Shown here piece after piece: positions 3,779 to 35,514 of a DNA stretch of 36,589 bases. The position numbers were made by a program, and so were the translations under genes. Under the pieces are notes generated by a model. It made no database searches. It saw only the letters and a program-made list of their open reading frames with translations, and was not told the DNA's origin. This DNA is from Eubacteriales bacterium (GTDB lineage Bacteria; Bacillota; Clostridia; Oscillospirales; CAG-272): contig JAZRLJ010000012.1 in the NCBI GenBank assembly GCA_045646755.1, positions 1 to 36,589 of the forward strand. Direction: 5' to 3'. Positions within the stretch are counted from its first letter, which is position 1. Each line of letters starts with the position of its first letter.

Positions 3779-4357
3779 ATGGCAACATTAAGCACAGGAG
3801 ACAACTTGAAAAGACTTACAGGGGACGAAAGACTCGGTCAGAATCGAGAGTCTGAATATCTCGGAGCGGAGGACATCGACCCCGGTACAGAACCGATACT
3901 CACGATTGAGGGTATATGGAACGGATTGGTAACGCTTCAGAGAGGCAAGGAAAACAAGGACGTTATGACCTTTGTCGAGAAGAGCACCAACGGCATACAT
4001 AACGTAAGACCGCTTATAATCAACGCTACGAACAGAAAAACGCTTAAGAAGATATACGGAAGCGTAACTGCAACGGCGCTTGCAGGCAAAAAAATTCAGC
4101 TCTATATCGACCCAAAAGTAAGAGATCCGCAGGACGGAAGCATGAGAGACGGAATACGAATCAGACCGTTTGCTCCAAAGGTAACGAAAAAGGCTATTAT
4201 TTGTGAGATGTGCAATAAGGCTGTAACGCCTGCATCGAATATGACTGCCGAACAGGTCGCAGAGTACACTAAAGGCAGATTCGGTAAGACGTTATGTGCG
4301 GAATGTGCGACAAAGATAGTTGAAAAGGAGCAGGCAGAAAAATCGGAGGAGAATTAA
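3779..4357 (+). CDS. Phage early protein with a C-terminal zinc ribbon, function unknown
   Basis: 192 aa with a strong AAAGGAGG SD. The C-terminus has CEMCNK...CAECATK. It sits upstream of the nuclease/SSB genes. Confidence 0.8.
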   Translation: MATLSTGDNLKRLTGDERLGQNRESEYLGAEDIDPGTEPILTIEGIWNGLVTLQRGKENKDVMTFVEKSTNGIHNVRPLIINATNRKTLKKIYGSVTATALAGKKIQLYIDPKVRDPQDGSMRDGIRIRPFAPKVTKKAIICEMCNKAVTPASNMTAEQVAEYTKGRFGKTLCAECATKIVEKEQAEKSEEN

Positions 4358-13720: not shown

Positions 13721-13977
13721 GTAAACTATCATTGAGATAGTTTACAGATAGTTTACAGATGGTTTACGCCCAAAAAACAGTACCACAGGCTGATTTTTTT
13801 TACTTTGTAAACTATGTAAACTTAAAAAATAGAAAAATATTTATAAAAGATATAAAAATTCAATATAAAAGGTTTTTGCATATACGATAGTTTCGTTTAC
13901 AACTTTGCAAAAAAACAGCATAGAGCAGTACGGGATACTTGTTTTTTTAATGTAAACCAACTTTTGAGATAGTTTAT
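13721..13977. repeat. Iteron cluster with an AT-rich tract: putative phage replication origin
   Basis: Three tandem 11-bp units GAT(A/G)GTTTAC(A/G) sit at 13736-13768. Inverted copies GTAAACTAT occur at 13721-13729, 13807-13815 and 13816-13823. Further copies lie at 13886-13901, 13952-13958 and 13968-13977. An AT-rich core spans 13825-13880. Confidence 0.65.
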
Positions 13978-14000
13978 AAAAATCACGCAGAAAGGATTAA

Positions 14001-14831
14001 ATGGTGTTAAATATGGCAGAAAATAACATAAATGAGCAGAATTATACAGATACTACGGTAATTGAAGCGGCAAACAACACGGATAATGCCAACGTTAAGA
14101 TGGATGTAGCTGAATCGGTGGGCGCAGAGCAGAACGGTGCAGTACAGTCTGTTTCGAATCAGAGTAAGTCCGGTTCGAGTGGTAAGAAGCGAATGGGCAG
14201 ACCGCCAAAGCCGAGAGACCCTAACAAGCCCGAAACGAGAGGTCACAAGACGACGAGGCAGGAAGCGCATGAAAGGAGGGTTAAGGAAGGCATAGAACAC
14301 GCCGCATTGAAAGGATATAGACGACCTGATTTAAAGAAATTTGCAGAGGAAAACTGCCTGCCGGGTGACAATGCCAGAGCGGTGGAGTTTGTTGTCGAGC
14401 TGGGACTATTGCCCCTTGTAGACCTTGCAGATGCTAAAGCGGTTGAATCACGGGTGGTAGAGTTTTTTGAAATTTGTGCCAAGTATGACACCAAACCGCT
14501 AATATCGGGGTTGGCTGATGCGTTAGGAATAGATAGGCGCAGATTGAAGGAGCTTGTTAACGAAACGCCGGGTAGGGAGTTGGGTACGACTTTCGAGTCC
14601 CGGGCGAGTATAAAAAGGGCTTACAATATGATGGAGACTTTATGGGAGCATTATTCGGTCAATGGTAAGATGAACCCGGTCACAGCAATTTTTATGGGCA
14701 AGAACAACTACGGCTATCAGGACAAGGTTGAACTTGTAGCGACTACACAGAGCAAGTTAGTTGATGCGGACGTTGAAAGCTTGGTCGAAGAGGCAAAGCT
14801 GCTTCCGACTTTCACGCACGAAACAGAATAA
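14001..14831 (+). CDS. terS: Terminase small subunit
   Basis: A basic N-terminal region (KKRMGRPPKPRD) is followed by VVEFFEICAKYDTKPLISGLADALGIDRRRLKEL. This matches the TerS pattern YF..C.....P...GLA..LG..R..L. ATG 14013 is an alternative start. Confidence 0.7.
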   Translation: MVLNMAENNINEQNYTDTTVIEAANNTDNANVKMDVAESVGAEQNGAVQSVSNQSKSGSSGKKRMGRPPKPRDPNKPETRGHKTTRQEAHERRVKEGIEHAALKGYRRPDLKKFAEENCLPGDNARAVEFVVELGLLPLVDLADAKAVESRVVEFFEICAKYDTKPLISGLADALGIDRRRLKELVNETPGRELGTTFESRASIKRAYNMMETLWEHYSVNGKMNPVTAIFMGKNNYGYQDKVELVATTQSKLVDADVESLVEEAKLLPTFTHETE

Positions 14832-14833
14832 AA

Positions 14834-14859
14834 GAGTCGGAGCGACTTTGCTCCGACTC
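14834..14859 (+). terminator. Perfect 10-bp hairpin directly after terS
   Basis: GAGTCGGAGC-GACTTT-GCTCCGACTC. A T5 run appears only about 20 nt downstream (14882-14886), so terminator function is uncertain. Confidence 0.5.
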
Positions 14860-14945
14860 TGCGACTTTATGGCGACTTTGCTTTTTAGGGATTGCTTTAT
14901 CAACCGGGGTACAAATTGGCACCCTCTACCGACTCTACCGACTCT
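14843..14945 (+). repeat. Six direct copies of CGACT(T/C)T
   Basis: Copies start at 14843, 14854, 14862, 14873, 14930 and 14939. The last two belong to a tandem ACCGACTCT x2. Confidence 0.8.
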
Positions 14946-15169
14946 ATCAAGCAAGGATGCGGATATGATCAGGTTAATTTGCAGCGGTACAGCGAAACGC
15001 AACGAGCACAACGCCAGCCCAACGCAAACGCACCCACAAGGTCGAAATTTCACGCACAAGCCACAATAATATAATTTATAGATAAATACCCATAATTATA
15101 AAAATCTTCTCAAAACGCAAATTTCAGCCTTATACAGTTATACTATAATATATTATATAATATAATAGC

Positions 15170-15197
15170 CGTTAACGTTTGACCGTCAACGGCTTAA
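15170..15197 (-). terminator. Hairpin terminator downstream of the 15204-15416 ORF
   Basis: AGCCGTTAACG-TTTGAC-CGTCAACGGCT forms an imperfect stem. It lies 6 nt after the stop, and the minus strand continues AT/T-rich. Confidence 0.55.
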
Positions 15198-15203
15198 ATT
15201 TAA

Positions 15204-15416
15204 TTAGGGATAAACAAAAGAATATGCGGGATTATCAAGACCTTGCTCGAGCATTGATACAATAGCCCTTCGACCGCCCTGAGGTATATATACATTTTTT
15301 CCGTCGAGGCTTAAAAAACCTTTATCATCCACATAAAGAGCAAAACCTTTTTTATATACTGCGTTGGGCTTTACAATGCTCCGTTTGTTCTTCATATTAA
15401 CAATGTGAGCCTTCAT
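15204..15416 (-). CDS. 70-aa hypothetical protein
   Basis: A strong AAGGAG SD lies 7 nt upstream of the ATG. Translation begins MKAHIVNMKNKRSIVKPNAVYKKGFALYVDDKGFLSLDGKNVYIPQGG... No family recognised. Confidence 0.7.
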   Translation of the reverse strand: MKAHIVNMKNKRSIVKPNAVYKKGFALYVDDKGFLSLDGKNVYIPQGGRRAIVSMLEQGLDNPAYSFVYP

Positions 15417-15445
15417 ATTTCCATCTCCTTAATATTAAATTATAC

Positions 15446-15474
15446 TTGACTATTTACCGCCGTTCTGATATAAT
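15446..15474 (+). promoter_or_regulatory. Sigma-A promoter for a short plus-strand RNA
   Basis: TTGACT (15446-15451), a 17-nt spacer ending in TGA, then TATAAT (15469-15474). Confidence 0.65.
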
Positions 15475-15480
15475 AATAAT

Positions 15481-15575
15481 CAACAGGTGGCTGCTATGCT
15501 GGTAGCGGTCATCCCTGCTCAATTTATAGTTGAAGAGAATGCCGCTTACTAACCGTTAGCGGTTATTTTCTTTTT
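15481..15575 (+). ncRNA. Candidate ~95-nt sRNA (type I antitoxin candidate) convergent with the toxin-like ORF
   Basis: Runs from the promoter to the hairpin at 15541-15563 and the T-rich tract TATTTTCTTTTT (15564-15575). Its 3' end overlaps the last codons and stop of the minus-strand 27-aa ORF. It also holds an 18-aa ORF (15496-15552, MLVAVIPAQFIVEENAAY) with an AGGTGG SD. Confidence 0.45.
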
Positions 15576-15646
15576 AAGCTTAAAATTAAAGCAACAACGC
15601 TTATAATAAGCTGAAGAAGCTGAAACAGTTCGTCATATGTAACCAT
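15563..15646 (-). CDS. 27-aa hydrophobic peptide, Hol-Tox-like type I toxin candidate
   Basis: A GGAGGTGG SD lies 6 nt upstream of ATG 15646. Translation: MVTYDELFQLLQLIISVVALILSLKRK, one TM helix with a basic C-terminus. It has its own consensus promoter. Confidence 0.6.
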   Translation of the reverse strand: MVTYDELFQLLQLIISVVALILSLKRK

Positions 15647-15703
15647 TTCGCACCACCTCCGCAAAGAAGTGGATAACCATAACCACCCATTGATTACGAT
15701 AAT

Positions 15704-15732
15704 ATTATACACCCATTAATCGTAATTGTCAA
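15704..15732 (-). promoter_or_regulatory. Consensus sigma-A promoter for the toxin-like peptide
   Basis: On the minus strand: TTGACA (15732-15727), a 17-nt spacer, then TATAAT (15709-15704). The inverted repeat ATTACGAT/ATCGTAAT (15693-15700/15719-15726) brackets it. Confidence 0.7.
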
Positions 15733-15896
15733 TAGATTAATGATGATTTCTCGTAAATAGCACCATTGTTTACAATTTAGAAACATTTATAACGCAATTA
15801 AGAGAGAAAGCACCCGAGGGGGATATGCGCCTATCGTCCGACCCGCAATAACCCCCGTCTCCTCCGAAAAAATAAAAAGAAATTTTACGAAAACAC

Positions 15897-15925
15897 TTGA
15901 CAATTTATCGTAAAGGATATATAAT
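15897..15925 (+). promoter_or_regulatory. Consensus sigma-A promoter for the recombinase operon
   Basis: TTGACA (15897-15902), a 17-nt spacer, then TATAAT (15920-15925). Confidence 0.7.
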
Positions 15926-15958
15926 GGTGGTACAGACAAAAAGCAGAGAGGTAGAAAA

Positions 15959-16705
15959 ATGAACGTAATAGGATATATCAGAGTATCGACAGACGGTCAA
16001 TGCGGAGAAGATAAGTTTGGAATGGAAGTACAGAGGGAGCAGATCGAGGCGTACTGCAATAAAAATGATATGACCATCACGAAATGGTACACAGACGAAG
16101 GAGAGTCCGGGGCAAAGCAGAGACCGGGATTTGATGAGATCGTATACGGCGAGGTAGACAATCCACCGTATGAGGCTGTGGTTGTAGCAAAGAGCGACAG
16201 AGTAGCAAGAGACATCAATGTATACTATTACTACAAAATGCTCTTGAACAAGAAGGATATAAAACTCATATCGATAGCAGAGGATTTTGGGCAGTTTGGT
16301 GTGTTTGCGAATATGCTTGAGGCGTTCACCCTTTGTGTAGCCGAAATGGAAAGAGACAACATAACCAAAAGAACAAGTGGCGGCAGAAAGATAAAAGCTG
16401 CAAAAGGCGGCTATAGTGGAGGTAGACCTCCATATGGTTATGCTGCTCAAAACGGCACGTTATCAATAATTCCCCACGAAGCAGAAATTGTAAGATTTGT
16501 TATAAAGTCAAAAGACGAGGGGAAAACGTTTCAATCGATTTGCGATTCGTTGAACGCATCAGGCAAAACCAACAGAAGTGGCACAAAGTTCAGCATTAGT
16601 ACATTGCAGGTTATAATAGATAACAAACCGCTGTATCAAGGAATGTATAAATATGGCAAGGATAGCAAATGGGTAAAAGGTTTGCATAAACCTATCCTTG
16701 AATAA
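15959..16705 (+). CDS. Serine recombinase: resolvase catalytic domain plus a 'recombinase' domain, lacking the zinc-ribbon and coiled-coil
   Basis: MNVIGYIRVSTDGQ carries the catalytic Ser. Other motifs are DEGESG, KSDRVARD and AEMERDNITKRT. GGRPPYGY...EAEIVRFV...LNASG follows, and the ORF stops right after HKPILE, where large serine recombinases normally continue. Confidence 0.85.
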   Translation: MNVIGYIRVSTDGQCGEDKFGMEVQREQIEAYCNKNDMTITKWYTDEGESGAKQRPGFDEIVYGEVDNPPYEAVVVAKSDRVARDINVYYYYKMLLNKKDIKLISIAEDFGQFGVFANMLEAFTLCVAEMERDNITKRTSGGRKIKAAKGGYSGGRPPYGYAAQNGTLSIIPHEAEIVRFVIKSKDEGKTFQSICDSLNASGKTNRSGTKFSISTLQVIIDNKPLYQGMYKYGKDSKWVKGLHKPILE

Positions 16706-16744: not shown

Positions 16745-16819
16745 ATGACCGTAAGCGAATGTTGTGTTGAATTGGGAATAAGCAGGGCTACGTGGTATAA
16801 TGCAGTTGCGAATATGTAA
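16745..16819 (+). CDS. 24-aa HTH-like mini-ORF (possible recombinase or transposase HTH remnant)
   Basis: MTVSECCVELGISRATWYNAVANM. The segment ELGISRATWYNAV looks like a resolvase/HTH_7-type recognition helix. The SD (AAGGCGG) is weak. Confidence 0.35.
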   Translation: MTVSECCVELGISRATWYNAVANM

Positions 16820-16828
16820 GAGGTTAAA

Positions 16829-17146
16829 ATGAATAACTTCAAAATAATATATAAGATATTAAAGCACCTTGAGGCATCACTCGATTATGAAGAAGTGGAT
16901 CTCGCACAGATAACGGCAGAACAGTTAGGCATATCAGAGGTGCGGTGGGAGCAGCTTCTCATAATGCTTTACGAAGAGGGATATATAAGCGGTATTGCGG
17001 TTTCAAAAAGCTTGTCAACCGACAGAAAACAAATATGCAGACCGATACGTCCAAACATAACGCTTAAAGGGCTTGAATATTTAGAAGAAAACTCGGTTAT
17101 GAAGAAGACAGAGAAAATAATCAGAGGCATTTCGGAGATATTATAA
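16829..17146 (+). CDS. YjcQ-family (winged-helix, phage-associated) protein
   Basis: MNNFKIIYKILKHLE...YEEGYISGIAVS...ITLKGLEYLEENSVMKK matches the recalled YjcQ family pattern. Confidence 0.7.
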   Translation: MNNFKIIYKILKHLEASLDYEEVDLAQITAEQLGISEVRWEQLLIMLYEEGYISGIAVSKSLSTDRKQICRPIRPNITLKGLEYLEENSVMKKTEKIIRGISEIL

Positions 17147-17256: not shown

Positions 17257-17320
17257 TTTGCTTTGGGGCAGAGAGAATTTATTACATCACGAATTGAAAA
17301 GAGAGGAGCTGAACAGCTTG

Positions 17321-18937
17321 ATGAATACAGAATTATTAAACGCTATGAAAATGTTTGAGGAAGCAGGCAAATACGCAAAAGCGCTTGAGTGTTTGGCAAG
17401 GCTTTATGAAGAAGATAAGGAGTCAGCAATAAAGTTCGTGGCACCGTTCAGGCAGAAGCTGACGGACTTAGTGGCATCGGGGCAAGACGTGCGAAACAAT
17501 TACGGAACGCTCAAGAAAACCTATTTGCTTACGGCACAAGACATACTTGATGATTTTCTTATCTACATCGAATGGGAGCGAGATTCAGACAAGAAATTTT
17601 ATCTACCGAGACGAAAGCAGCTAAAGGTGGTAGTTGATGCATTGCAGGATCTTGCAGATGATAAACTTGACTTGCTTACTATCAGTATGCCTCCCGGTGT
17701 TGGTAAATCTGCGACGGCGATATTTGCTCTTGCGTGGTTTGGAGGAAGAAAGCCGAACGAGTCCATACTTGGCGGCTCGCACAACACAGCTTTTCTGCGT
17801 GGTGTATACGACGAATTGAACAGAATACTGCAAGAAGACGGAGAGTATTTGTGGCGTGAGGTTTTTCCTGCTGTTCCGGTAGTAAGAACAAACGCTCAAG
17901 ATATGCTTATTGACCTTGACAAATCAAAGCGTTTTACGACATTTGAATTTACCTCGATCGGAGCAGGCAACGCAGGTAAAGTAAGAGCGACGCAGTTGTT
18001 ATACTGCGATGACCTATGCTCAGGAATAGAAGAGGCAATGTCAAAAGACAGACTTGACACTTTGTGGACGAAATACACGACGGACTTGAAGCAGCGTAAG
18101 ATGGGTAAATGCAAAGAGCTTCACATTGCGACGAGATGGTCGGTACATGATGTAATAGGACGACTTGAGAGAGAACACGCAGGAGACCCACGAGCAAGGT
18201 TTATTGCCATTCCTGCGATAAACGAAGAGGGACAGAGTAACTTCAATTACGCAGGCGGTGTCGGATTCGATACAAAGTTCTTTGAAGAGATGAAAAACAG
18301 CCTTGATGATGTATCTTGGCGAGCATTGTATATGAATCAGCCTATCGAACGTGAAGGGTTACTCTACGATTCAGAAACGCTCCGAAGATTTTACAGATTG
18401 CCTGAAGGAGATCCCGATGCAATACTGTCAATATGCGATACGGCGGAGGGCGGAGGAGACGATACTTTTCTCCCGGTATTTGCAGTTTACGGAAACGACC
18501 ATTATTGCATAGACTGTGTGTGCTCTGATTCGTTACCTGAAGTGACTGACGCTATGTGTGCGGAAATTTTATTAAAGCATAAGGTAAAAATGTGTCAGTT
18601 CGAGTCAAATGCAGCCGGAGGAAGAACCGCAGACAAGATTGAAGACATGGTAAAGAGCAAGGGCGGACACACGCACATAACAAAAAAGCGAACCACCACG
18701 AATAAGGAAACAAAAATTATCGTGAATAGTCCGTTTATCAAGGAAAATGTGCTGTTTCTTGACGAAAAATCAATTGAAAAAGGGTCAATGTATGCCAAAA
18801 TGATGCGGAATTTGTGTTCTTATACTGTTTCGGGCAAAAATAAGCACGACGACGTGCCCGACGGCTTTGCACAGTATGCTCTATTTGTGCAGAATCTCGG
18901 AGCAAACACGGTTCAAATAGTAAAAAGACCGTTTTAA
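17321..18937 (+). CDS. terL: Terminase large subunit
   Basis: Walker A-like SMPPGVGKSATA, Walker B LLYCDDL and a C-terminal nuclease motif KHDDVPDGFAQ. I prefer ATG 17321 downstream of GAGAGGAG over the track start 17258, which lies right after the terminator. Confidence 0.88.
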   Translation: MNTELLNAMKMFEEAGKYAKALECLARLYEEDKESAIKFVAPFRQKLTDLVASGQDVRNNYGTLKKTYLLTAQDILDDFLIYIEWERDSDKKFYLPRRKQLKVVVDALQDLADDKLDLLTISMPPGVGKSATAIFALAWFGGRKPNESILGGSHNTAFLRGVYDELNRILQEDGEYLWREVFPAVPVVRTNAQDMLIDLDKSKRFTTFEFTSIGAGNAGKVRATQLLYCDDLCSGIEEAMSKDRLDTLWTKYTTDLKQRKMGKCKELHIATRWSVHDVIGRLEREHAGDPRARFIAIPAINEEGQSNFNYAGGVGFDTKFFEEMKNSLDDVSWRALYMNQPIEREGLLYDSETLRRFYRLPEGDPDAILSICDTAEGGGDDTFLPVFAVYGNDHYCIDCVCSDSLPEVTDAMCAEILLKHKVKMCQFESNAAGGRTADKIEDMVKSKGGHTHITKKRTTTNKETKIIVNSPFIKENVLFLDEKSIEKGSMYAKMMRNLCSYTVSGKNKHDDVPDGFAQYALFVQNLGANTVQIVKRPF

Positions 18938-32869: not shown

Positions 32870-33109
32870 ATGAGTTGGGAAATATTCATCGGTATATCAG
32901 CGCTTGTGTCGTTTGTATTAGTTGTGTTAACGCCCATAATCAAGCTGAATACAAGCATAACAAAACTTAATTGCTCAATAGATACCCTTAATAATAATAT
33001 GGAAGCACATGAGAGACGCATTGAAAAGCACGGAGAACAGATAGATGCTCTGCGTGATGATATAACAACGCTTAAAAGCTACCATACAAAAGGAAAGGAA
33101 GATGCATAA
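32870..33109 (+). CDS. Small membrane/coiled-coil protein of the lysis cassette (holin-like or XhlA/BhlA-like)
   Basis: 79 aa with an N-terminal TM helix (IFIGISALVSFVLVVLTPII) followed by a coiled-coil. TAATG overlap with the next gene. Confidence 0.55.
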   Translation: MSWEIFIGISALVSFVLVVLTPIIKLNTSITKLNCSIDTLNNNMEAHERRIEKHGEQIDALRDDITTLKSYHTKGKEDA

Positions 33110-33486
33110 TGTTTGAACAGTTCATATCTGAATACGGCACTACGATACTGTACGCTTTACTTACTACCGCGGCAGGCATCATCGGAACGTGGATAGGCTC
33201 TATTTACAAGAAGTACATAAATGATAAAACAAAAGAAGCTGTAGTCCGCACCGTTTGTAAGGCGATCGAGCAGATGTACAAAGACTTACATGGCGAAGAA
33301 AAATACAACAAAGCAGTCGAGTCCATTGTCGAAATGCTCTCACTTAAAGGAATCACCATTACCGAACTTGAAATTAAAATGCTGATTGAGGCAACGTGCT
33401 CCGAGTTCGTAAAATCGGCACAGACCGAAATTGAAAACGAAGTAATAAAAGAAGCCCAGCAGATGATAGGAGCAACGGAGGCGTAA
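33109..33486 (+). CDS. Holin, LL-H family-like
   Basis: 125 aa. An N-terminal TM helix (TILYALLTTAAGIIGTWIGSI) is followed by VVRTVCKAIEQMYKDLHGEEKYNKAV...MLIEA, the pattern recalled for LL-H holins. Confidence 0.7.
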   Translation: MFEQFISEYGTTILYALLTTAAGIIGTWIGSIYKKYINDKTKEAVVRTVCKAIEQMYKDLHGEEKYNKAVESIVEMLSLKGITITELEIKMLIEATCSEFVKSAQTEIENEVIKEAQQMIGATEA

Positions 33487-33488
33487 TT

Positions 33489-34100
33489 ATGGCAACAAGA
33501 ACGCAAGTTAACGCTTTTATAGACAAGCTTTCCGTTCTTGCTATATCCGAATGTATACAGAGAGATAAAAAAATATGTCCTTCTGTTTGCATAGCGCAGG
33601 CAGCACTTGAGACCGGATGGGGCACATCCTCTCTTATGCTAAAGGCTAATGCCTATTTCGGAATTAAAGCTACCGGATGGAGCGGCAAAGTCTATAACGC
33701 AAAAACAAAAGAGTCTTACGACGGTAAGACCCTTGTAAACACATCGGCATATTTTAGAGCTTACGACAGTCTGTCTGATTCGGTGAAAGACTACTACGAT
33801 CTTTTAACCAATTCAAGCAGATATGCCAAAGCTGTCAACGAACCTGATGCAACAAAATGTATTAAGGCAATCAAAGCCGGGGGTTATGCTACAGACCCTC
33901 TCTATGTATCAAAGATAACAAGCATTATAAAAACATACGGACTCACAAAGTATGATGTATGTATGAAAGATACAAAGCAGCCAAAATACGCAGACCTTGT
34001 TGCTAAAAAGTGCGGACTTGAAAAGCAGACTGTAGATTATATTAACGCATATACTTATGCGGATGCTTTGTGGGAAAAATTGTACAAGCAGATGGTATAA
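33489..34100 (+). CDS. Endolysin, GH73 N-acetylglucosaminidase domain
   Basis: IAQAALETGWGTS...NAYFGIKA...YFRAY...GYATDPLY is the mannosyl-glycoprotein endo-beta-N-acetylglucosaminidase signature. Confidence 0.85.
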   Translation: MATRTQVNAFIDKLSVLAISECIQRDKKICPSVCIAQAALETGWGTSSLMLKANAYFGIKATGWSGKVYNAKTKESYDGKTLVNTSAYFRAYDSLSDSVKDYYDLLTNSSRYAKAVNEPDATKCIKAIKAGGYATDPLYVSKITSIIKTYGLTKYDVCMKDTKQPKYADLVAKKCGLEKQTVDYINAYTYADALWEKLYKQMV

Positions 34101-34473: not shown

Positions 34474-35514
34474 TTATAATTTATTGGTTATTTCTCGCAA
34501 ATCTTCATACGAAACGTCTTGATAATACTGCAACATTTTGACGTCTGTGTGTCCTATCAAGCGGAGTTTATCTCGATCAGGAGCAGTAACATTCTTCAGC
34601 AGAGTTGCAAAAGTATGTCGGCACGAATGGGGCGTTAACGTATGGTCTGACTCGCTCTGTATTCCCATTTTTGACAACGCTTTGTAGAACTCCTTGTAAT
34701 AGACCTTTTGCGACATCTTAGAGCCGTCTTTGCTGAACAGATATCCATCAGGGTTAGTTTCTGCAAATCGTTCAATCAAGGGCAAAATTTTAGGTGAGAC
34801 GGTAACGATTCTGTTCTTCCCTGCCTCTGTCTTGATACCACCTTTAAGTGCTTTTTCTTCAGCGTCAAAATCGGAGGATTTAAGAGAAAGCAGCTCTTGC
34901 GGACGGAAACCTAAATAACAATGGCAATATATGATATCCGCAAACGGAACGACCCCTGCGCTATTTTTTATAATTTCCAATTCGTCAAGGTTAAATCCTC
35001 TCTTGTTTGACTGTACTGTTCCGGCTTTTACCTTAATATATTGCGGATAGTTTATGCGACCGACGTTATACCCTCTCGGTACAGCCCACTTATATATAAG
35101 ACCAAGAGCTATTTTTGCATTCTGACGAGTTCGAGTACCCTTATCCGTATTGTCTATGCAAGACTGCAGATCGTCTATATCCTGATTCGAGAGGTATATA
35201 TCCCAACACGGCTCAAATAATTTGAAACCCGATGCGTAGCAATTTATCGTGAGCCTTGAGGCTTCATAGTTTTCAATCCACTTATCATAAGCATCTTTAA
35301 GTGTAATTTCTCTTGGCTTTTCGGACATTTCTTTTTTAAGCTCGATTATATATTCAAGAGCCTTTGTTTTCGTCGGAAAGCCTTGTTTTGTCCTACGAAT
35401 AGGATTGCCGTCTGGCTTGTAACCTACGACGGCAATAGCTTTCCAATTGTTTACACCGACACGAATCGCAGAGCCTTGTCCGTTTCCTCTGCGTTTTATA
35501 CCTTTTTTTGCCAT
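34474..35514 (-). CDS. int: Tyrosine integrase
   Basis: 346 aa. The C-terminal catalytic motifs are HSCRHTFATLL and LIGHTDVKMLQYY. An N-terminal SAM-like/arm-binding region is present. Confidence 0.92.
   Translation of the reverse strand: MAKKGIKRRGNGQGSAIRVGVNNWKAIAVVGYKPDGNPIRRTKQGFPTKTKALEYIIELKKEMSEKPREITLKDAYDKWIENYEASRLTINCYASGFKLFEPCWDIYLSNQDIDDLQSCIDNTDKGTRTRQNAKIALGLIYKWAVPRGYNVGRINYPQYIKVKAGTVQSNKRGFNLDELEIIKNSAGVVPFADIIYCHCYLGFRPQELLSLKSSDFDAEEKALKGGIKTEAGKNRIVTVSPKILPLIERFAETNPDGYLFSKDGSKMSQKVYYKEFYKALSKMGIQSESDHTLTPHSCRHTFATLLKNVTAPDRDKLRLIGHTDVKMLQYYQDVSYEDLREITNKL

Follow-up and report, generated by a model that had tools for sequence, protein, structure and literature searches.

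Between the terS-like and terL genes of a temperate phage on contig JAZRLJ010000012.1 (GenBank assembly GCA_045646755.1, a Eubacteriales bacterium of GTDB lineage CAG-272), a gene for a 27-amino-acid (aa) hydrophobic peptide faces a convergent small RNA (sRNA). The contig was analysed over positions 1–36,589, a stretch hereafter called the window, and the two units occupy positions 15446–15732. We propose that they form a type I toxin–antitoxin (TA)-like module, built upon an antisense RNA of the phage backbone and placed as the first cistron of an operator-controlled cargo operon in a temperate, Oscillospiraceae-type phage; we rate this proposal at slightly under an even chance. The type I TA design is itself known, and it is the placement that is new: the peptide gene is an operator-controlled first cistron, and its antisense RNA is common to toxin-less phages.

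The peptide gene and its leader

The peptide, MVTYDELFQLLQLIISVVALILSLKRK, consists of (i) an acidic N-terminus, (ii) a hydrophobic helix of ~18 residues, and (iii) a KRK tail. Its gene is preceded by a sigma-A-type promoter, P_minus (TTGACA-17-TATAAT), which matches the consensus at 12/12 positions, in agreement with an earlier, sequence-only reading of the window. The ~50-nt 5' untranslated region, Shine–Dalgarno (SD) sequence and 27-codon minus-strand open reading frame (ORF) described in that reading were recovered at the same positions, the leader measuring ~51 nt (Table 1).

This is the only ORF of the 36.6-kb window that combines an SD, an ATG start, a length of 18–60 aa and a hydrophobic helix, while 0.02 such SD-led hydrophobic small ORFs are expected in Markov-shuffled sequence. 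Published searches for type I toxins have looked for short proteins with a transmembrane segment and a charged C-terminus (PMC2887945). The peptide combines these features: it is shorter than 60 aa, is predicted to form a transmembrane helix (Kyte-Doolittle 14-residue maximum of 2.69), and carries the charged KRK tail. In addition, the leader is predicted to fold into an 8-bp hairpin in which CCACUUCU (15672–15665) pairs with the SD GGAGGUGG (15660–15653). The SD is fully paired, and the hairpin is seen in both the minimum free energy and the centroid structures; it is a candidate for the kind of mRNA structure that restrains toxin translation in type I systems.

A second copy of the cassette

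The cassette recurs on an independent 2.3-kb Logan phage contig (L148), which was reached via P0002, the closest homologue (91% identity) of the 70-aa protein encoded downstream of the peptide. L148 is 83.9% identical to window positions 13816–16088; identities for individual features are given in Table 1. The peptide is 100% identical, the sole nucleotide change in its ORF being synonymous, and the 112 nt made up of the sRNA terminator and the ORF carry one change where 9.1 are expected at the local rate (P = 0.0012). The SD-sequestering hairpin is unchanged, with all four leader changes falling elsewhere. L148 also keeps the three hairpins of the sRNA: the 5' hairpin has one change in the loop and one A-U to G.U change, and the middle hairpin is rebuilt from different sequence.

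The sequestered SD, together with this extreme conservation, argues that synthesis of the 27-aa peptide is tightly restrained. As judged from the comparison of the two copies, the peptide gene is real and under strong constraint.

The convergent RNA

On the plus strand, the extended −10 promoter P_plus (TTGACT-17-TGaTATAAT) was found just as the earlier reading had it, with 11/12 matches; it is one of 11 sites returned by a promoter scan of the window, versus 6.6 expected in shuffles. A search with the P_plus sequence pattern gave no match in viral and metagenome collections. The predicted ~95-nt transcript folds far better than shuffled sequences (z = −4.95, with 0/200 shuffles as good). The hairpin and T tract proposed to end it are present and overlap the stop codon and last three codons of the peptide ORF; the U tract of the sRNA is the complement of the ORF's Lys/Arg codons and stop, and the minus strand has no U tract there. 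With its predicted promoter and terminator, the RNA has, at the level of sequence, the form of a cis-encoded antisense RNA that overlaps a toxin mRNA: its sequence complements the final codons of the peptide ORF as well as the spacer that precedes the 70-aa gene.

The earlier reading had cautioned that the plus-strand RNA contains an 18-aa ORF with a good SD. The ORF does start with an ATG (15496) preceded by AGGTGG at good spacing, but both the AGGUGG and the AUG are buried in the 14-bp 5' hairpin, and a 1-nt indel in L148 throws the ORF into another frame, of 39 aa, which extends across the terminator. Because of this frameshift, we conclude that the predicted plus RNA is a structured non-coding RNA.

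Table 1. Features of the cassette and its surroundings, with nucleotide positions in the window unless a related contig is named.
Feature	Position	Strand	Identity in L148	Remarks
terS-like gene	14001–14831		80%	flanks the cassette on one side
Terminator of leftward operon	15167–15194	−		intrinsic; conserved in sister phage L081 and in L148
70-aa gene	15204–15416	−	93%	SD AAGGAG at 15430–15425
P_plus	15446–15474	+	95%	extended −10
Antisense sRNA	15481–15575	+	5' hairpin 92%; middle 67%, with 1-nt indel	~95 nt; 14-bp 5' hairpin, small middle hairpin, terminator hairpin and U tract
Plus-strand ORF	15487/15496–15552	+		21 or 18 aa
sRNA terminator	15534–15575	+	100%	intrinsic; stem 15550–15565, then TTTTCTTTTT to 15575
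Peptide ORF	15563–15646	−	98.8%	27 codons
Peptide SD	15660–15653	−		GGAGGTGG; 6 nt before ATG
Peptide mRNA 5' leader	15647–15697	−	92%	~51 nt
Operator	15693–15726		82% (with P_minus)	ATTACGAT (15693–15700)-N18-ATCGTAAT (15719–15726); brackets the −10 box and +1 of P_minus
P_minus	15704–15732	−	82% (with operator)	drives the leftward transcript
P_rec	15897–15925 (element 15885–15925)	+	60%	perfect promoter; TTTACGA/TCGTAAA repeat flanks the −35 box
Serine recombinase gene	15959–16705	+		248 aa; driven by P_rec
terL	17258–18937			flanks the cassette on the other side
Hydrophilic helical mini-protein gene	L081 5558–5671; L090 2535–2672	−		37–45 aa (…LE[AT]IKII…); fills the peptide ORF slot
Backbone sRNA family	L002 ~3790–3870; L016; L035; L076; L089; L095; L097; L100 2629–2704	+		upstream of the recombinase gene
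22-aa ORF	L098 2445–2513	−		MIIVYAAYLIAVIIAGLARANK; behind a 185-nt structured leader (z = −3.1), before a strong terminator
24-aa ORF	L066/L074			MLSLLLLIIWFPLAVLADVVRKSK; ~640 nt upstream of the recombinase gene

The operator and the leftward operon

An inverted repeat around P_minus had been put forward as a possible operator. Its arms are kept, with compensatory changes, in ~12 lineages; arm pairs in other phages include TTACGATTA/TAATCGTAA, TTACGTTTA/TAAACGTAA and, in L148, TTACGCTTA/TAAGCGTAA. Such co-variation indicates that the repeat is a genuine operator. The promoter is similarly widespread: a 12/12 or near-perfect promoter, divergent from a serine recombinase gene and located 216–380 nt upstream of it, is present in ~75 of 80 viral relatives, and also in relatives among metagenome-assembled genomes (MAGs).

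The next leftward gene encodes the 70-aa product, which belongs to a real protein family (45 clusters of 61–91% identity, found in other phage contexts as well). Since no minus-strand terminator is predicted between 15563 and 15416, and no separate promoter was found for the 70-aa gene, the leftward RNA probably extends across both the sRNA gene and the 70-aa gene, with its end at 15194–15167.

The three strong promoters resemble one another beyond their hexamers (ACTTGACWATTTAYCG; 15468–15490 versus 15683–15705, and 15444–15459 versus 15895–15910), and the convergent RNAs begin alike (…AAUCAA[CU][AG]GGUGG). These shared sequences suggest a common origin or a common regulator.

The sRNA position and cargo in related phages

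The sister phage L081 carries an identical recombinase and keeps all three promoters, its P_plus matching at 12/12 plus the TG. The DNA that is replaced between the two phages is exactly that lying between the two convergent transcription starts (window 15475–15690); in its place, L081 has a hydrophilic 37–43-aa ORF and a different terminated sRNA of ~85 nt. Given that the replaced segment ends exactly at the two starts, the ORF and the sRNA travel as one unit. L090 carries a homologous hydrophilic ORF in the same convergent arrangement. In both phages the mini-protein gene is faced by an sRNA whose terminator overlaps its stop codon; the only match of the mini-protein is a weak one (phrog_11716), and the RNAs themselves have no SD-led ORF.

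Most other relatives have an extended −10 promoter directly against the SD of the first leftward gene; it drives a 70–95-nt RNA that is antisense to a bare leader and ends at a hairpin and U tract next to the operator. In the window, L081, L090, L089, L097 and the L002, L016 and L035 groups, the sRNA promoter directly adjoins the main leftward gene at its SD or start. In one backbone sRNA family, 10 of the 13 bp of the terminal hairpin show compensatory changes, and the G.U pairs favour the plus strand; the hairpin loop contains a conserved CUUUGGUCGG motif, and the family has no counterpart in Rfam. A covariance model of it (R1, built from 14 relatives with the loop CUUUGGUCGG) finds the L100 RNA at E = 2.7e-8, and gives no match at window 15481–15575 or in L081, L090 and L148. 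As R1 misses the window RNA, the latter is best described as a positional analogue of the backbone family, not a homologue.

Because sRNAs in the same position occur in phages without a hydrophobic ORF, the comparison indicates that the antisense RNA position is a phage backbone feature and not a dedicated antitoxin. This divides the earlier claim of a type I TA-like pair in two: the convergent, 3'-overlapping architecture stands, and the supposition that the antisense RNA is specific to the toxin is weakened by L081, L090 and the relatives with a leader only. Peptide ORF and RNA are swapped together in L081 and conserved together in L148; in relatives, the positionally equivalent RNAs face a hydrophilic ORF or none.

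The cargo behind P_minus differs between phages, being mostly proteins of unassigned function; one verified ArdA anti-restriction gene is included, as the second ORF of L015. A cargo family of 129–139 aa ('MLKTNSKKA') was considered as a further ArdA and rejected on the grounds that it has no Pfam match. In other relatives (L098, L066 and L074 in Table 1), the operon contains different small ORFs that are likewise hydrophobic and end in a basic tail.

The location between terS and terL had been called an unusual home for such a module. The order terS, cargo operon, recombinase, terL is kept in ~90 related loci, and the location is therefore a conserved hot-spot and not an oddity.

Family assignment and likeness to known systems

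The earlier comparison of the peptide with the Hol-Tox family was not supported. Queried as the 27-aa form, a variant with an added K and a 33-aa extended form, the peptide gave no match to the Pfam PF16935 Hol_Tox hidden Markov model (gathering score 23.3 bits) at E ≤ 1 or E ≤ 10; the model did recognise three control sequences (BsrG-like, 34.5 bits; BsrE-like, 47.9 bits; consensus-like, 63.5 bits). BLASTP aligned the peptide with the consensus-like Hol_Tox sequence at 7/21 identities (14.6 bits, with an E of 0.012 that holds for a single comparison only). The two share an M-x-T-Y-[DE]-x-L start, which is suggestive, not significant. There was no BLASTP alignment with the BsrG-like sequence, and the Rfam BsrG RNA model (RF01412) reached 10.9 bits (E = 9.9) at 15561–15683 on the minus strand, versus a gathering score of 55, a result that we treat as noise.

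Homologue searches gave a similar picture. Nothing was obtained from a word-indexed protein search with the 49-aa extended ORF or from tblastn of the peptide against phages and plasmids; a phmmer search of 1.84 billion representatives with the 33-aa form yielded nothing but a spurious match to a 2660-aa repeat protein; and degenerate DNA patterns for the peptide found only chance matches in viral and metagenome contigs. The best-looking pattern match, in L128, was rejected since it sits inside a real 158-aa gene on the opposite strand. As both the family tests and the homologue searches failed, the Hol-Tox assignment is not supported, and what the peptide has in common with that family is the general design of short type I toxins. 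A role as the phage's lysis holin was likewise rejected, because the phage encodes its own canonical holin and endolysin.

The closest parallels in design are bsrG/SR4 and txpA/RatA of the Bacillus subtilis prophage SPbeta and skin element. These share with the window (i) a prophage-borne, single-helix peptide with a basic C-terminus, (ii) a cis-encoded sRNA of ~100 nt, transcribed convergently and overlapping the toxin mRNA at its 3' end, and (iii) a structured toxin mRNA that limits translation. In systems of this type, RNase III-dependent decay is expected. Unlike them, the window peptide belongs to neither Pfam Hol_Tox nor Rfam BsrG, is probably the first cistron of an operator-controlled operon with a coding overlap of 13 nt plus the hairpin, and is opposed by an sRNA whose position is common to toxin-less relatives. 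TxpA/RatA and an EF3263 relative have been described previously (PMC2887945).

Prophages of Clostridioides difficile encode toxins of 34–47 aa that are hydrophobic and positively charged, with convergent antitoxin RNAs overlapping at the 3' end, and a role for these modules in mobile-element retention has been proposed (PMC7699646). CD0977.1/RCd11 and its relatives (phiCD630-1/2) resemble the window cassette in their Clostridia prophage setting and convergent, 3'-overlapping layout. In contrast to these modules, the window peptide is shorter at 27 aa, is predicted from sequence, and lies within a terS–terL cargo operon next to a recombinase; the two were not detectably similar in sequence.

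The OOP RNA of phage lambda offers a third comparison. OOP is a terminated antisense RNA of 77 nt, convergent to the early operon; it overlaps the 3' end of cII and the following spacer, leading to RNase III cleavage. The window sRNA is likewise short, terminated and antisense to the 3' end of a small gene plus an intergenic spacer. The window target differs in being a hydrophobic peptide gene and not one for a transcription factor; there is no sequence relation, and the host is Gram-positive.

Proposed mechanism and alternative explanations

If the cassette is a type I TA-like module, it would work as follows. From the operator-bracketed P_minus, an mRNA would be made whose leader hairpin limits translation of a single-helix membrane peptide, and from P_plus a ~95-nt, three-hairpin RNA whose 3' end falls within the final codons of the peptide ORF. 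The sRNA would pair perfectly with the leftward RNA from 15575 to 15481, and RNase III would cut the duplex, so that the peptide-coding 5' fragment loses its 3' hairpin and is then degraded. Convergent transcription would add interference, and peptide synthesis would be kept very low. A drop in the labile sRNA, or de-repression at the operator, would allow the peptide to accumulate, insert with its KRK tail inside the cell, and perturb the membrane, with growth arrest, prophage retention or abortive infection as the outcome. The position of the antisense RNA would have been inherited from the backbone and co-opted to repress the peptide, as opposed to having evolved as a dedicated antitoxin. 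Toxicity, RNA–RNA pairing and RNase III dependence are the steps of this scheme that we infer.

Several points weigh against the proposal. Firstly, the peptide gene is apparently the first cistron of an operator-controlled polycistronic operon, which is unusual for type I toxins. Secondly, convergent terminated sRNAs also occur in phages with a hydrophilic first ORF or none, where they are explained without a toxin. Thirdly, overlap between sRNA and peptide ORF is guaranteed for only 13 nt plus the hairpin; most of the RNA (15481–15562) faces the spacer before the 70-aa gene. Trans-acting contact of the sRNA with the peptide's ribosome-binding site was considered and rejected, as 265 of 500 shuffles give a duplex at least as good. 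Finally, the peptide has no family match in Pfam, NCBIfam, PHROGs or PADLOC, and with one other known occurrence (L148; two copies in all), toxicity is not inferable by homology.

The foremost alternative, which we rate only a little below our proposal, is that the RNA is an OOP-like, anti-leader RNA that regulates the leftward cargo operon in general. It would do so by transcriptional interference and RNase III processing immediately ahead of the principal cargo gene. The peptide would then be a non-toxic membrane cargo protein, serving for example in superinfection exclusion, anti-defence or modulation of a host membrane protein, and the two would be neighbours, not a TA pair. The comparative evidence fits this explanation well: no matter which gene is the main leftward one, its SD or start always adjoins the sRNA promoter, and in most relatives the sRNA, with its compensated hairpin, faces a leader that lacks any small ORF. 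In L081 and L090, this architecture goes with a conserved hydrophilic protein of 37–45 aa, cargo genes vary between phages and include the verified ArdA, and the spacer-facing part of the window RNA is antisense to sequence outside the peptide ORF. However, the SD-burying hairpin and the extreme conservation of ORF and terminator suggest restraint of this peptide in particular. The peptide ORF and sRNA are, moreover, exchanged together as one unit, and the window sRNA is no detectable homologue of the backbone family. As with type I toxins in general, peptides of such size and shape are also usually toxic when overproduced (PMC2887945).

Two further explanations are essentially excluded. Two convergent genes for small proteins (27 aa on the minus strand, 18–21 aa on the plus strand) could share a bidirectional terminator and involve no RNA regulation, as the well-spaced AGGTGG and ATG of the plus-strand ORF might suggest; we consider this very improbable, since the L148 indel destroys that frame with the RNA hairpins preserved, the start region lies within the 5' hairpin, and the L081 and L090 equivalents have no SD-led ORF. 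More improbable still is an unexpressed, chance constellation of promoter- and ORF-like sequence in an AT-rich spacer: phage intergenic DNA of this kind often gives promoter-like matches, as the excess in the promoter scan illustrates, but L081 and L148 retain three promoters of 11–12/12, 0.02 small ORFs of this kind are expected, and the cassette is conserved well above background.

The serine recombinase and a possible regulatory hub

The recombinase encoded divergently from the peptide contains a Resolvase domain and a partial Recombinase domain; it is truncated, having neither a zinc ribbon nor the usual C-terminal helix-turn-helix (HTH). Homologues of 50–83% identity are found in 80 viral contigs among the matches listed and in 15 genome-collection contigs, nearly all of them MAGs (Oscillospiraceae, Acutalibacteraceae, Ruminococcus, Lachnospiraceae and other Clostridia). 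In ~90 of these loci the gene immediately precedes terL; the recombinase is conserved there at 62–83% identity, and terL at only 32–58%.

Five of the 21 TCGTAA/TTACGA sites of the window cluster in 220 bp (15694–15913), in pairs that flank the −10 box of P_minus and the −35 box of P_rec. The cluster, to which the operator belongs, looks like a res-like or operator array, with the adjacent serine recombinase as a possible binder, as for TnpR in Tn3. The Tn3/gamma-delta res region is similar in that a serine recombinase gene diverges from a second unit, with inverted-repeat subsites overlapping both promoters (here, the five TCGTAA half-sites). It differs in that binding by the window recombinase is pure inference, and in that this protein lacks the usual C-terminal HTH and is followed by a separate HTH-like ORF; nor was a recombination partner site identified. 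A promoter switch operating by inversion between the P_minus and P_rec repeats was rejected: the central sequences are unrelated, and the 18-nt spacer is too short for internal inversion.

A wider reading, unlikely as a whole in our judgement and well behind the two leading explanations, is that Oscillospiraceae and other Clostridia phages carry a hitherto undescribed regulatory hub between terS and terL, composed of a recombinase-repressor, its operators and an sRNA-gated cargo slot. In such a hub, the truncated recombinase may repress, like Tn3 resolvase, at TTACG/CGTAA operators over the two divergent promoters. The convergent sRNA (at least three unrelated sequence types, plus one conserved family absent from Rfam) may gate a swap-in slot, and the slot may hold anti-restriction genes, small regulators or, here, an orphan type I toxin.

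We regard the TA case as solid but unproven, and the conserved regulatory hub around the cassette as more interesting than the TA pair. If the peptide is toxic and the RNA restrains it, the cassette would represent a new type I toxin family in gut Oscillospiraceae phages; we know of no type I system in Oscillospiraceae hosts or their phages. It would also illustrate how such modules arise, namely by the slotting of a hydrophobic ORF into a leader already opposed by an antisense RNA, and provide a case of an antisense RNA of the backbone recruited to serve as antitoxin. Regardless of toxicity, ~100 gut phage contigs share a conserved cargo hot-spot with an operator, divergent promoters, an anti-leader sRNA and a truncated recombinase, which makes it a practical place to seek anti-defence and other small accessory genes.

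Additional observations on the phage

The window comprises a complete temperate phage, with a tyrosine integrase (34474–35514), an HTH repressor (1795–2130), and a holin and endolysin (33109–34100). The tyrosine integrase is thus separate from, and additional to, the truncated serine recombinase. In frame 13 codons past the TAA stop of the recombinase gene lies a 24-aa HTH-like ORF, MTVSECCVELGISRATWYNAVANM (16745–16819), which has its own SD. L081, L016 and L079 have conserved this ORF, whose product might be a split DNA-binding domain or arise by readthrough.

Between the divergent promoters, a GC-rich block (GGGGG…CCCCC, 15806–15858) is conserved in L081 and L148. It was considered as an RNA element and rejected, its folding being no better than that of shuffles on either strand. 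After the block comes an A-rich tract, a possible UP element, ahead of the P_rec −35 box.

A blastn search of the region against phages and plasmids gave no match, as did exact-protein look-ups of terS, the 70-aa ORF and YjcQ. The last of these, a YjcQ-family gene (Pfam E = 9e-25) at window 16829–17146, lies between the recombinase gene and terL; the sister phage L081 lacks it, and a few distant relatives (L016, L096) have it.

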